Source of the DNA: Shigella phage SGF2
Strand: one strand, 5' to 3'
Length of the DNA stretch: 64,000 bases
Sequence record: MN148435
The notes under the pieces are model-generated. The model had not been told where the DNA came from, made no database searches, and worked only from the letters and a program-made list of their open reading frames with translations. A program made the translations under genes and the position numbers. Below, piece by piece: positions 40,819 to 52,011 of the stretch (position 1 is its first letter; every line of letters begins with the position of its first letter).

Positions 40819-42663
40819 TCAATGGGTATGCATCCAGTTAAGTCCAATCTGACAATCAGAAGCCAGAGGACATTCCATGTTCAAATATTCACCAGCCTTC
40901 TTAACACAAAGCTCGGTGTGTTCTTTGAGTTTCTGTACATCATTACGGTTCACTGAGAACTGGCCCTCATCGTGCATATCAATTACCTTAGCACAACGAA
41001 CCTTATCTTTCTCAATCCACTTGTTAAGGAACATCATAGCATATTTCATAACAACAGCACCAGCACATTGAAGGAGAGTATTAAGAGCTTTATGAACCAT
41101 AACTTTACCAGTGGCATCTCGTCTCATTGTAATCTTACGACCATCAACACCAATCAAGTATCCTTGAGCAGCTTTCTCTGTCATACGATCAATGAGGATT
41201 GCAATACATGGATTCTCTGCCAAGAAACGTGCTCGCATCACTGAACCTTCGTCAGCCCCACCACCTACAATTGAACCAAGCTTAGCATCACCAGCACCAT
41301 AGTTGAATGCGTAGATAAACGTCTTAGCGTTGTCACGAGTAGGAAGACCAGCAAGTTTCTGGTTGTGGGAGTGGATATCACCTTCAAGGAGAATATCACG
41401 ATACATAATAGCAGAAGCTAAACCACGCTCTGCCAGAGCTTTCTTAGCTGGATTATTCTCTTCGATTGCTTCAGCAAGCATATCCCTACACTCTTTAATG
41501 AGGTAGTGTGCGAGCATACGCAATTCTAATCCAGAACCATCATACCCTAAGAATACTTCTTTACCAGCGGGTATGTAATATTTGTAAGCACCTACAGGTT
41601 TATCTTTCTTCCCCGGCTTACCTTTCTCATAAATTACGTTAGTACCTTTTCGTATATAACAACCATCAGGAACAACGTTAGTAATAATGAAAGGACGAGA
41701 GTGATCATCATCTGAGTTATAGTCAGACTCAAACAAACCGCGACACTCATGACCAAACAAACCACGGGAGGGAATATTAACCACGATACGATGTTTGAAT
41801 CGAAAAGTCGGCGTAGCGCAGCTGTTAGCTTCTGCCGAAAGTTTACCATCTTCGCGTTCCTTTGCTATGAGTCCACTGATAAGACCTAGCCTGTGAGCCG
41901 CTACAACGCGTCTCTTAAGCAAACTTCCGACACTCCCTAGCTCACCCCCTAACCCTTCTTCAAGAGTCTCCTCGAGGTTTGTAGGAGCTGTAGGCCACTT
42001 GTTTGAGGTAGCTAGTGCTATCTTAATCTCATCAAAAGTGATAGGTCTACGTCGGTTAGGATTTAAACCTAAACCAAACACATAAGCCTTCATATAGTTC
42101 TTAGTTTTAAACCGAAAATGCTTCTCTAAGAACTTTCTAATATCAGCGTCAACCATCTCGGCTGTCTGCTTCTGTTTAGCATTACCTCGCATCCAAGCTG
42201 AATACCACGCTTGGTATGTTCCATACTTTCGCATATCTTTCTTGATTTCAAAAGTATTCCAAGGTTTCTTTGATACGTTAAACTCTGGAGGAAGAAAGCC
42301 CTCATCCATAAGGGCTTCTTTAACTCGTGCATCTTTCGATGGGTCAAAGTCTACATATTCAACACAGGTGAATGCTCCACCAATGTCTTCTCTCTTAAGA
42401 CCAACTCTATCACAATAGGCTTGAGGCCACTTCTGTAAAGCTCCAGACTTCTTAAATGGCTTCATATAAGTAGAGCCATCTAGTCTCATCTTAGGTAAGA
42501 GAGGAATCAATTCTTTATCAATATTAACAATAATCTCTTTAAGGAGGTGAACATACCACCGAGCATTTCTTCGGTTGAAACTCACTCCGTGCTTCGCTTG
42601 CTTAGAGATTATATCAGCGACAGTCATCTCTGTCAAAAATGGGAGAGCGTCCGGGTTGCTCAC
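40819..42663 (-). CDS. DNA polymerase, family A (polymerase domain only)
   Basis: motif A LGYDGSGLELR, motif B RDNAKTFIYAFNYG, motif C VIDMHDE; no DEDD exonuclease motifs in this 614-aa protein. Confidence 0.8.
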   Translation of the reverse strand: MSNPDALPFLTEMTVADIISKQAKHGVSFNRRNARWYVHLLKEIIVNIDKELIPLLPKMRLDGSTYMKPFKKSGALQKWPQAYCDRVGLKREDIGGAFTCVEYVDFDPSKDARVKEALMDEGFLPPEFNVSKKPWNTFEIKKDMRKYGTYQAWYSAWMRGNAKQKQTAEMVDADIRKFLEKHFRFKTKNYMKAYVFGLGLNPNRRRPITFDEIKIALATSNKWPTAPTNLEETLEEGLGGELGSVGSLLKRRVVAAHRLGLISGLIAKEREDGKLSAEANSCATPTFRFKHRIVVNIPSRGLFGHECRGLFESDYNSDDDHSRPFIITNVVPDGCYIRKGTNVIYEKGKPGKKDKPVGAYKYYIPAGKEVFLGYDGSGLELRMLAHYLIKECRDMLAEAIEENNPAKKALAERGLASAIMYRDILLEGDIHSHNQKLAGLPTRDNAKTFIYAFNYGAGDAKLGSIVGGGADEGSVMRARFLAENPCIAILIDRMTEKAAQGYLIGVDGRKITMRRDATGKVMVHKALNTLLQCAGAVVMKYAMMFLNKWIEKDKVRCAKVIDMHDEGQFSVNRNDVQKLKEHTELCVKKAGEYLNMECPLASDCQIGLNWMHTH

Positions 42664-42679
42664 TTTATACTCCTTTAAA

Positions 42680-43102
42680 TTATCGGTAAAGTAAATCTGT
42701 GAATGCTTGGTTATCTTCTACTACATCTAGCATGGTAGCTTCATCACTGTAAGCCCTAACCGTCCCGTTGACAACTGTCCAAGGAGGTGGTGGAGGTGGT
42801 GCATGGTTAGCCCTAGCTTCACGAGGTTGCTCTCGTACTAAATGAGCCACAACCCTTTGGTTAGCGACTTCTTCTCTTTCTCGGATAGCTCTCTGAATGT
42901 AAGCCAACTTCATACCCCAAGCTTCTTCAAACTCTTGAGGGTGCTTATCACTGATAACCACATACTGACGTTCAGGGATACCAGAGCGAATCTCTGACAG
43001 TAGTTCATGGAACAAATCAAGTTCATGTTCAGTGAGATTCATTTCGATATCATCCCACTTAAGAACTAAGAAACGGTTTTGGTGTCTAGCTGGTAATGGC
43101 AT
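42680..43102 (-). CDS. hypothetical protein
   Basis: 140 aa; contains PPPPPPW. Confidence 0.4.
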   Translation of the reverse strand: MPLPARHQNRFLVLKWDDIEMNLTEHELDLFHELLSEIRSGIPERQYVVISDKHPQEFEEAWGMKLAYIQRAIREREEVANQRVVAHLVREQPREARANHAPPPPPPWTVVNGTVRAYSDEATMLDVVEDNQAFTDLLYR

Positions 43103-43103
43103 T

Positions 43104-43262
43104 CTACTCCACCTCTACTTCAATGTAAGTTCTCTCGCCAACGTCATCTTTTAAGACCCATGCCTTGGCATCTTCTTCAGACTTAAAAGCTTTCACAACG
43201 CTGTACCCACCTTCCCATTCATCACCGAACCACCGCTGACCAACGTAAATATACTCTTTCAT
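43104..43262 (-). CDS. hypothetical small protein
   Basis: about 52-aa ORF MKEYIYVGQRWFGDEWEGG... filling gap between flanking genes. Confidence 0.25.
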   Translation of the reverse strand: MKEYIYVGQRWFGDEWEGGYSVVKAFKSEEDAKAWVLKDDVGERTYIEVEVE

Positions 43263-50075: not shown

Positions 50076-50084
50076 TCTTATTCC

Positions 50085-51455
50085 TTAGTTATTTGTTTCC
50101 ATGTCAAAAGAGATTCCACGACCCGCTTCATCGGCAAACCGAACTGTACGGGCTTGAGGTTCTAATACTTCAGGGTTGTTAGCAATAAAGCGATCAGCGA
50201 GACTGCGGCTGACAGCCTCAGCGAGTTCCTCATGAGAAGGAGTATCAAGATCGGAGAGACTGCCTACCACATCTTGGGCCACACCTTCATCAGTCCACAC
50301 AGCCCTAACAGGTGCGTTGATATCACCAACAGCAAAACCCTGACCAGAGAACTGACGTGCGCTAACAGTTAAACCGTTTGGTCGACCACGAGAGGGTCTA
50401 GCCATCCATCGCTCCATAGAATCACTTGTAATACCAAGAGCTTCTTCAAAAGATGTTCTACGAGTAGGGCTTTCTCTTCGTGACTCTTGTGCTCGACGCA
50501 TTGCAGGGGCTACAAAAACCCCTTCAATTGCATTGTGTCGGTTAGGTTCATCTTCCCGACCAAGGAGATCCCCTCCTGTATTAGTTGTTAAATTTGTCAA
50601 CCCTTCAGACCAATACGCACGAATCTGACCAGAGCCATGAACACTTGACATTAACTGAATTTCTTCGTAAGGGATTCCAAAGAATCGACTCATGTCTCGG
50701 TTAACACAATATTGAGCACTTGTTGTATCCTCAACATGAGCAACCTGACCTCGTTCGTTGACCAGATGACTAACTGGTTGAGGTGTAGGAAGGTATCGAG
50801 TTTGTGCCATATATTGATATGCAACAGATGGAGCGGAGAATCTTAATACCTGTGAATTAGGCCACTTCTTGTGAACGTATCTGATTTCACGACTAGAAAC
50901 AACCACAGGGCAAGGAGCGGTCATAGCTAAATATCCATGAGGAGTCATGAATAAGCTGTCAAGAGTTATCGCACCACGGCACATCATAGGAAAATTATCC
51001 AATACCTCTTCAATAGAAGTAGGATAATTAAACATGAATTGAATGCGGGTTCCATTCCACTGAAACTCAATAATATCAGTGAATGTTAATTGAGAACCCC
51101 CAGCATAGGATTCGTTTGTAGCTTCAGCAAGAAGGGATGCATACTCGATATCTTGTGACTCTAGCCATTCCTTCACATTACTTTCAATCTCTCTTCCAAG
51201 AGCTTGCCAACGATCAGTTGGGGTGAATGTGTTTTGAGTTATTGGTGTTTGTCCTCTGACAATAAAGATATCAATGTCATGTGGAGCTGTGTTATTAAGC
51301 ACAGCATCTCGAACAGCCCCACCAGTAATGATGGGACAGATACCGTCTGGAACCAAGTTGTTGTTAATCAACTGTTCAATGAAGTGACGACCAACAGTGA
51401 TATCAGGTTGTTGAGCAACCTTATCTTCAATTCGGTTAATCGGGATAACAATCAT
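50085..51455 (-). CDS. Pol-beta superfamily nucleotidyltransferase (CCA-adding / poly(A) polymerase head-like)
   Basis: ITGGAVRDAVL...HDIDIFI = GGxVRD plus DxD motif; ATG 51455 (MIVIPINRI) sits 2 nt after exonuclease stop. Confidence 0.5.
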   Translation of the reverse strand: MIVIPINRIEDKVAQQPDITVGRHFIEQLINNNLVPDGICPIITGGAVRDAVLNNTAPHDIDIFIVRGQTPITQNTFTPTDRWQALGREIESNVKEWLESQDIEYASLLAEATNESYAGGSQLTFTDIIEFQWNGTRIQFMFNYPTSIEEVLDNFPMMCRGAITLDSLFMTPHGYLAMTAPCPVVVSSREIRYVHKKWPNSQVLRFSAPSVAYQYMAQTRYLPTPQPVSHLVNERGQVAHVEDTTSAQYCVNRDMSRFFGIPYEEIQLMSSVHGSGQIRAYWSEGLTNLTTNTGGDLLGREDEPNRHNAIEGVFVAPAMRRAQESRRESPTRRTSFEEALGITSDSMERWMARPSRGRPNGLTVSARQFSGQGFAVGDINAPVRAVWTDEGVAQDVVGSLSDLDTPSHEELAEAVSRSLADRFIANNPEVLEPQARTVRFADEAGRGISFDMETNN

Positions 51456-51456
51456 T

Positions 51457-52011
51457 TTACATTTTCCAATATAATGAAGGTGGGTCGTAAGGGTCGAACC
51501 CTGTGAGTTCACACAAGTATTTATAAACCTTAACAGTTAAGTTAACGTCCTGTTCACAGTAAGTAAACATATCTTCAGTGAAAGCATCCCATGCTTCCTC
51601 TTGCTCACCATAGTCGCCCTTAAGTTCCTCTAAGAACTCACCCCATTGCTTCAAACCATGACCTCTTGGGCCATATCTAGGGTCGCCTTTCGGATACTCA
51701 GGACTGTCACCAATACGGTCAGGTTTAAGATATCGACTAAGACACAAGGTGTCGAAGACGTTAAAACGATAGTTGATCAGATTGGGATACATTTTCTTCA
51801 GAGCACAAAGGTCGAAGTCAATAATATTATGACCTACGAGCACATCAGCTTCTGTAAGTTTACGAATCCCATCTTCAATTTGGTGAGGCCGATAGCCCCA
51901 CCTTTCACCAGTTTCAACATCGAAGATGTAAATACACCATACTTTAGTTATGTCATCGTACAGTGCATTACTCTCGATATCAAATGCAAACACTTTCTTT
52001 TTCTTTACCAC
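51457..52011 (-). CDS. 3'-5' exonuclease, DnaQ/DEDD-like (separately encoded proofreading-type domain)
   Basis: Exo I FDIESN, Exo [12 protein letters not shown], Exo III YCEQDV. Confidence 0.65.

Follow-up and report, generated by a model that had tools for sequence, protein, structure and literature searches.

Exonuclease and polymerase halves of a T7 gp5-type DNA polymerase encoded 8.8 kb apart in Shigella phage SGF2

Overview of the locus

The stretch of DNA analysed here, referred to as the window, comprises 64,000 nucleotides (nt) of Shigella phage SGF2 (sequence record MN148435), a phiEco32-like phage (Gordonclarkvirinae, Kuravirus). It carries two separate genes for the parts of a replicative DNA polymerase of the T7 gp5 type: a polymerase gene at 40819..42663 and a gene for a stand-alone 3'-5' exonuclease at 51457..52011. 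All genes treated below lie on the minus strand, and transcription therefore proceeds from high to low coordinates. Over 100 coliphages of the phiEco32 type (Gordonclarkvirinae, with Kuravirus predominating) match the surrounding region at 93–98% nucleotide identity. In transcription order, the window presents a primase/helicase gene, the exonuclease gene, an inserted block of other genes, the polymerase gene and, further on, a separate 5'-3' exonuclease gene.

A T7-like polymerase without an exonuclease domain

The open reading frame (ORF) at 40819..42663 encodes a family A DNA polymerase of 614 residues comprising thumb, palm and fingers, 100% identical to the DNA polymerase of Shigella phage SGF2. 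Its start codon is a GTG placed seven bases past an AGGAG; in more distant relatives this position holds an ATG. Motifs A, B and C, which the original prediction had read in this ORF, are all present: motif A is YDGSGLELR (D375 and E380), motif B is RDNAKTFIYAFNYGAG (R443, K447 and Y451), and motif C is HDE (residues 564–566). Across the 68 homologues that make up the polymerase profile, D375, E380, R443, K447, Y451, Y455, G456, H564, D565 and E566 are invariant without exception. The third position of motif B is occupied by a tyrosine, Y451 in RDNAKTFIY, equivalent to Y526 of T7.

The only Pfam family found in this protein is DNA_pol_A (residues 361–611, E=6e-23), in agreement with the earlier statement that the ORF lacks an exonuclease; neither Pfam, nor hhalign, nor the alignment to gp5 detects a 3'-5' exonuclease domain in the same chain. 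A complete exonuclease hidden in the N-terminal part of the polymerase, the finding by which the original prediction would have been refuted, was looked for specifically. Comparison of the exonuclease profile (48 homologues) with the polymerase profile by hhalign returns a probability of 0.2%, that is, no similarity, and the N-terminus aligns from gp5 residue ~206 onwards, so that a hidden domain is ruled out.

By sequence, the best match in the PDB is T7 gp5. The single sequence reaches E=5e-32 and the 68-homologue profile E=3e-68; against Klenow, that profile reaches E=2e-28. The AlphaFold2 (AF2) model, computed like that of the exonuclease as a single monomeric chain, has a predicted local distance difference test score (pLDDT) of 91.8, and Foldseek identifies T7 gp5 as its best fold match (E=1e-25), the top 27 matches all being T7 gp5. 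Motifs and closest characterised relative place the protein in the T7-like subfamily of family A, which corresponds to cluster #5 of a published classification that accepts split members (PMC10201439).

A perfect sigma-70 promoter sequence with an extended -10 lies at 42608..42636 (minus strand), within polymerase codons 10–19. It consists of TTGACA, 17 nt ending in TG, and TATAAT, and has no second exact match anywhere in the 64 kb of the window. The block GTCGCTGATATAAT, which includes a rare ATA isoleucine codon, is nucleotide-identical in relatives that are only ~79% identical; the -35 hexamer of the element is not conserved in relatives. The element might serve as an internal promoter or bind RNA polymerase, or it might merely be a conserved coding block.

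A stand-alone DEDDy exonuclease next to the primase/helicase

The ORF at 51457..52011 encodes a stand-alone 3'-5' exonuclease of 184 residues that is equivalent to the exonuclease domain of T7 gp5 and probably serves as a proofreading subunit. As originally described, it contains the motifs Exo I (FDIESN, with D11 and E13), Exo II (HNIIDFD, with D67) and Exo III (YCEQD, with Y151 and D155), and it matches the Pfam family DNA_pol_A_exo1 (PF01612) with E=5e-9. Residues D11, E13, D67, Y151 and D155 are unchanged in 48 of 48 aligned homologues, down to 35% identity, and N62 is likewise invariant. This invariance indicates that the exonuclease is under selection to stay active.

The exonuclease profile aligns to residues 2–189 of T7 gp5 with E=3e-32; like the match of the polymerase profile, this lies well outside what chance would give. 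The AF2 model (pLDDT 93.9) shows a complete domain with the RNase H-like fold of the gp5 exonuclease domain, and the top 27 Foldseek matches are again all T7 gp5. Motifs and fold together assign the protein to the DEDDy proofreading-type class (PF01612). Additionally, it matches phrog_403 (E=1e-37, residues 3–176) and phrog_38876 (E=6.5e-76, residues 74–184), both labelled 'DNA polymerase exonuclease subunit'. Weaker matches of the profile extend to small stand-alone DEDD enzymes, namely the diDNase ancestor (E=5e-8) and nanoRNase C (E=1.6e-4). The exonuclease of Escherichia phage 172-1 is 98.4% identical. A conserved C-terminal tail, GFDPxNPP, is peculiar to the clade of stand-alone exonucleases, and the last residues of the protein (180–183) are modelled as a short β-strand.

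The exonuclease gene is preceded by a GGAG and begins with a GTG that overlaps the stop of the gene at 52005..53795 by 7 nt, which bears out the reported position beside a primase-helicase. This neighbour encodes a gp4-like primase/helicase of 596 residues with a Pfam DnaB_C match and a weak Toprim_2 match. The same adjacency is observed in Kuravirus and Bruynoghevirus records.

Correspondence of the two proteins to T7 gp5

The alignment to T7 gp5 that had been proposed for defining the domain boundaries places the junction of the two proteins near gp5 residue 205. On the polymerase side, the profile covers gp5 in collinear pieces (residues 206–232, 312–368, 401–454 and 465–698). When the exonuclease and polymerase sequences are joined end to end, HMMER aligns query residues 9–318 to gp5 residues 3–362 as one domain across the junction, and the remainder of the joined query aligns on to gp5 residue 704. 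This continuity puts the break at about gp5 residue 205, within the exonuclease/polymerase linker, and indicates that nothing was lost or duplicated. PHROG 17 ('DNA polymerase') is matched by both ORFs at adjacent profile positions, 668–826 and 836–1233.

A fused relative provides a second reference. The metagenomic protein P0168 carries both domains in one chain of 618 residues; the window exonuclease aligns to it over residues 5–154 at 36% identity, and the window polymerase over residues 168–285 and 269–618 at 43% identity. Compared with P0168, the polymerase has extra segments at ~130–211, 311–365 and 389–420. The P0168 gene lies directly downstream of primase/helicase and ligase genes, a T7-like order of gp4 followed by gp5 that the window keeps. 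Collectively, homology and collinearity indicate that a replicative DNA polymerase of the T7 gp5 type is divided between the two ORFs.

Age and spread of the split

From the exonuclease stop to the polymerase start, the separation in the window amounts to 8,793 nt with ~23 minus-strand ORFs, close to the ~9 kb and about twenty genes first estimated. A gap of 8.8 kb is found equally in the examined records of Kuravirus and related Gordonclarkvirinae; elsewhere it measures 1.66 kb in Bruynoghevirus and, in two metagenomic contigs, ~6.5 kb and over 10 kb, respectively. Despite these differing gaps, the order primase/helicase, exonuclease, gap, polymerase, 5'-3' exonuclease recurs.

The separation extends well beyond close relatives. 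A search of a 5.8-billion-protein collection retrieved 50 exonuclease homologues, from 96% down to 35% identity, all of which are 105–212 residues long and thus too short to hold a polymerase domain. The closest ~115 polymerase homologues span 437–620 residues and have no precomputed exonuclease Pfam domain; among them is the 'DNA polymerase part II' of LUZ24-like phages, at ~39–42% identity over the full length. The exonuclease gene is present in every inspected genome with this exonuclease-less polymerase, and its ORF is intact in more than 100 genomes of the Kuravirus group. The split is thus old and stable, being conserved across a large phage clade.

In the wider exonuclease family, a HMMER scan of the full set of 1.84 billion representatives recovered 852 proteins at E < 1e-30. 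A binned set of 153 sequences, consisting of the best representatives and three fused relatives, includes 43 short forms and 84 long fused forms. In a rough neighbour-joining tree of the exonuclease domain, the window falls within a block of ~24 stand-alone sequences. This distance tree, built on 199 columns from short sequences that possibly include fragments, is used solely to place the window in a mostly stand-alone block and is too crude for counting fission events elsewhere in the family. Read from these sequence comparisons, a single old fission probably occurred in the ancestor of the clade, after which other genes would have accumulated between the halves.

Further interruptions of the polymerase gene occur in some relatives (phage pEC-N1203-2Af.1, L010, 294..2709; L006, 16980..19561; proteins P0064–P0067 and P0132–P0157). 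In one relative, the gene is divided into a 561-residue part, an ORF of 131 residues and a 51-residue part, with the break at motif C; in another, 463 residues are followed by an HNH_3 endonuclease and 151 residues, with the break near motif B. Some of the shortest polymerase homologues (~437–460 residues) appear to be such further-interrupted genes. Unless splicing removes the insert, these relatives would encode gp5 as three separate parts. A group I intron was considered as the cause and set aside, there being no Rfam match at the gathering threshold in L010, L006 or the window. The polymerase gene of the window is free of the extra insertions that interrupt the gene in some group members.

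The intervening genes and their surroundings

The block between the two halves (42680..51455, minus strand) was delineated from the ORF list, Pfam, PHROGs and the annotations of close relatives. In transcription order, its first part comprises a 456-residue nucleotidyltransferase, a dCTP deaminase, three small tandem paralogues and a ferritin/Dps-like DNA-binding protein. These are followed by a thioredoxin, ThyX, a stand-alone LigA domain Ia, PhoH, an HNH endonuclease and two small paralogues. Assorted small ORFs complete the block, including one of 140 residues without an assigned function.

The nucleotidyltransferase gene (50085..51455, minus strand) starts 2 nt past the exonuclease stop. 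The protein matches PHROG 12715, labelled 'nucleotidyltransferase' with no specific role given. Its head shows a weak match to CCA-adding enzymes and poly(A) polymerases (GGAVRD...DIDIF), and its long C-terminal half is of low-complexity appearance. The gene is kept at the same position in the examined Kuravirus and related Gordonclarkvirinae records.

The phage thioredoxin (47442..47717, minus strand; 91 residues, Pfam Thioredoxin E=4e-13) is a candidate for the role that host thioredoxin plays with T7 gp5, that of a processivity partner of the polymerase. Polymerase residues 63–134 align weakly to T7 gp5 residues 289–356, which overlap the thioredoxin-binding region, and residues 59–132 are modelled by AF2 as a compact α/β unit. 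A partnership of thioredoxin and polymerase has been proposed for phage Privateer (PMC7881722).

A consensus scan places two strong terminator-like hairpins with T-rich tails on the coding strand between the exonuclease and polymerase genes, at 47959..47931 (11-bp stem) and 43871..43848 (10-bp stem). Over the region from 38 to 57 kb, 25 terminator-like sites are found against a shuffled expectation of 12.9 ± 3.4, an approximately twofold excess. If the two hairpins are functional, exonuclease and polymerase would be expressed from different transcripts.

Domain Ia, the NAD+-binding part of NAD-dependent DNA ligase, makes up the whole of the 109-residue protein encoded at 45647..45976 (minus strand; Pfam Nlig-Ia, E=8e-35); the protein has no adenylation or OB domains and is called 'DNA ligase' in the annotations of relatives. 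The three tandem paralogues at 48926..49541 (minus strand) are ORFs of 69, 69 and 65 residues ending in (V/I)(H/Y)Y. The two at 43266..43806 (minus strand), of 94 and 84 residues, share KTARTxVxLR..GKFISY and end in PFPKG.

Outside the block, the gene at 33757..34584 (minus strand) encodes a 5'-3' exonuclease of 275 residues, the counterpart of T7 gp6. It matches PHROG 107 ('exonuclease') with E=9e-65 and the Pfam family 5_3_exonuc_N with E=7e-6, the latter under the gathering score of the family. Upstream of the primase/helicase, conserved minus-strand ORFs are located at 54015..54434, 55136..56338 and 56782..58734. Relatives label this set as a gamma-glutamyl cyclotransferase, an ATP-grasp enzyme (or ribosomal protein S6 glutaminyl transferase) and a glutamine amidotransferase; 55136..56338, the only one of the three run against Pfam, gave weak ATP-grasp matches. 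The set precedes the primase/helicase in LUZ24-like phages and metagenomic relatives too.

Function of the separate exonuclease

The arrangement is best accounted for by an ancestral gp5-type gene that would have been cut at the linker between its 3'-5' exonuclease and polymerase domains. The exonuclease half would have remained beside the gp4-like primase/helicase gene, and the polymerase half would have come to its present place 8.8 kb downstream, with nucleotide-metabolism and small accessory genes in between. The 184-residue exonuclease would then bind the polymerase non-covalently via the ancestral interdomain interface and excise wrongly inserted 3' nucleotides in trans, in the manner of epsilon with Pol III alpha. 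The whole enzyme would act together with the primase/helicase and perhaps also with the thioredoxin of the phage. Taken as a whole, with the two gp5 halves left by an old fission and with a complex and a fidelity effect that are postulated, this account is considered probable.

The original prediction had offered proofreading in trans or another role without choosing between them, and the sequence evidence makes proofreading in trans the likeliest. It is favoured because the closest homologues of the exonuclease are the proofreading domains of T7-like polymerases, because the exonuclease accompanies the exonuclease-less polymerase in every inspected genome, and because the two proteins together rebuild a collinear gp5. 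The invariant active site and a published AF2 model of the S-SBP1 proteins (PMC10201439) lend further support. Several points weigh against proofreading in trans. The association of exonuclease and polymerase is itself inferred. The two hairpins between the genes mean that the proteins may come from separate transcripts and in unequal amounts. Moreover, the exonuclease is translationally linked to the primase/helicase and not to the polymerase, and the stand-alone clade has a conserved tail of its own, so that the old interface may have changed.

Some of these observations would also suit an exonuclease that works independently of the polymerase. Its task might be recombination, the processing of ends, the breakdown of host DNA for nucleotide salvage or a partnership with the primase/helicase, and replication would then proceed without proofreading. 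The overlap with the primase/helicase stop and the hairpins point in this direction, as do the nucleotide-metabolism genes that follow the exonuclease (nucleotidyltransferase, dCTP deaminase and ThyX) and the weak detection of the diDNase ancestor and nanoRNase C by its profile. However, the matches to T7 gp5 are ~24 orders of magnitude stronger than those to any stand-alone nuclease, the Exo III motif is DEDDy, as in the proofreading domains of Pol A enzymes, and the gene occurs wherever an inspected genome has an exonuclease-less polymerase; its place beside the primase/helicase is, moreover, the ancestral gp4–gp5 order. An independent role is on this balance unlikely. The translational coupling to the helicase and the predicted terminators before the polymerase gene also suggest that the proofreader might be recruited via the primase/helicase instead of being a fixed partner of the polymerase, an arrangement that is somewhat less probable again.

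Two further explanations are effectively excluded. Split inteins rejoin split polymerases elsewhere, as in cyanobacterial DnaE, and insertions of the homing-endonuclease type occur in the polymerase gene of relatives, so that the halves could in principle be reunited after expression into a gp5-like chain by split-intein trans-splicing or recoding. Yet the exonuclease is homologous to gp5 throughout save for ~15 C-terminal residues, and in the polymerase the gp5 alignment begins at residue ~7 of the protein, which leaves no room for an N-intein of ~100 residues or a C-intein of ~35. None of the Pfam matches of either protein is to an intein family, and 8.8 kb with ~23 ORFs between the genes exclude frameshifting and ribosome hopping. 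Rejoining is rejected on these grounds of size and alignment and is the least probable of all the readings. A slightly larger, still very small, chance attaches to the exonuclease ORF being the decaying remnant of a gene disruption and the split having no functional meaning. Frameshifts are known to have split genes in T7-like cyanophages (PMC10201439), and the exonuclease family mixes short with long forms (43 and 84 of the 153 binned sequences). Against decay stand the five catalytic residues invariant in 48 homologues down to 35% identity, the intact ORF in the Kuravirus-group genomes and the complete, confidently modelled domain.

Relation to known systems

The arrangement is real but already known: the literature describes it for this group of phages, and phage annotation now incorporates it. 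The anatomy described by the original prediction, an exonuclease-less polymerase with a separate conserved exonuclease, stands, but the novelty that it implied is not supported (PMC9965538, PMC3517423). Separate genes for polymerase, 5'-3' exonuclease and 3'-5' exonuclease have been reported as common to all members of the phiEco32-like group (PMC9965538). The 2012 phage tf paper describes the split likewise for the LUZ24 group and credits the parallel to a 2008 phiEco32 paper (PMC3517423). In public records, the 184-residue protein is labelled 'DNA polymerase exonuclease subunit' or 'DNA polymerase'.

The phiEco32-like phages (Gordonclarkvirinae: Kuravirus, Suseptimavirus and Nieuwekanaalvirus) share the gene order of the window at 95–98% nucleotide identity, with no material difference. 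T7 gp5 (PDB 1T7P, 2AJQ and 6N7W) is the best match in both sequence and structure, the exonuclease corresponding to gp5 residues 2–189 and the polymerase to ~206–704. Likeness to T7 further includes the tyrosine at motif B position 3, the position after a gp4-type primase/helicase gene and a separate 5'-3' exonuclease like gp6. In contrast, T7 has one chain of 704 residues where the window encodes two, of 184 and 614 residues, and T7 uses host thioredoxin whereas this phage encodes its own.

The LUZ24-like Pseudomonas phages (Bruynoghevirus) have the same split, annotated as 'DNA polymerase part I / part II', and their exonuclease gene overlaps the primase/helicase gene as it does here. The polymerases are ~39–42% identical over 99% of the length and the exonucleases ~35%. 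Bruynoghevirus differs in its 1.66-kb gap with six small ORFs and in a polymerase of ~545 residues, and an intron has been reported in the LUZ24 polymerase gene (PMC3517423). The S-SBP1-like T7-like cyanophages (Czernecki et al. 2023, PMC10201439) show fission of a T7-like Pol A at the same exonuclease/polymerase boundary, and the AF2 model of the separately encoded S-SBP1 exonuclease and polymerase superposes on an unsplit relative (PMC10201439). There, however, the split is recent and arose through a 1-nt frameshift, the genes being adjacent and overlapping, whereas here it is old and ~23 ORFs lie between the genes.

A working analogy, implying no membership, is offered by the alpha and epsilon subunits of Pol III; that enzyme is an unrelated polymerase of family C, and its epsilon subunit, a DEDDh enzyme, docks in another way. 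In E. coli Pol III, epsilon (DnaQ) is a DEDD proofreading exonuclease that serves the exonuclease-less alpha (DnaE) as a separate subunit.

Biological meaning

The arrangement has been observed before, but it shows that a T7-type replicase can have its proofreading domain detached for good and that, given a long evolutionary time, the two genes are able to move kilobases away from each other. Should the proofreader be recruited via the primase/helicase, the ratio of exonuclease to polymerase, and hence replication fidelity, could be independently set or could change during infection, and the phage would possess a natural three-part T7-type replisome with tunable proofreading. If, as the favoured account of proofreading in trans proposes, the exonuclease and polymerase form a complex, the pair would make a natural system well suited to studies of trans proofreading and of interdomain communication in family A polymerases, and also a source of a naturally exonuclease-less T7-like polymerase.

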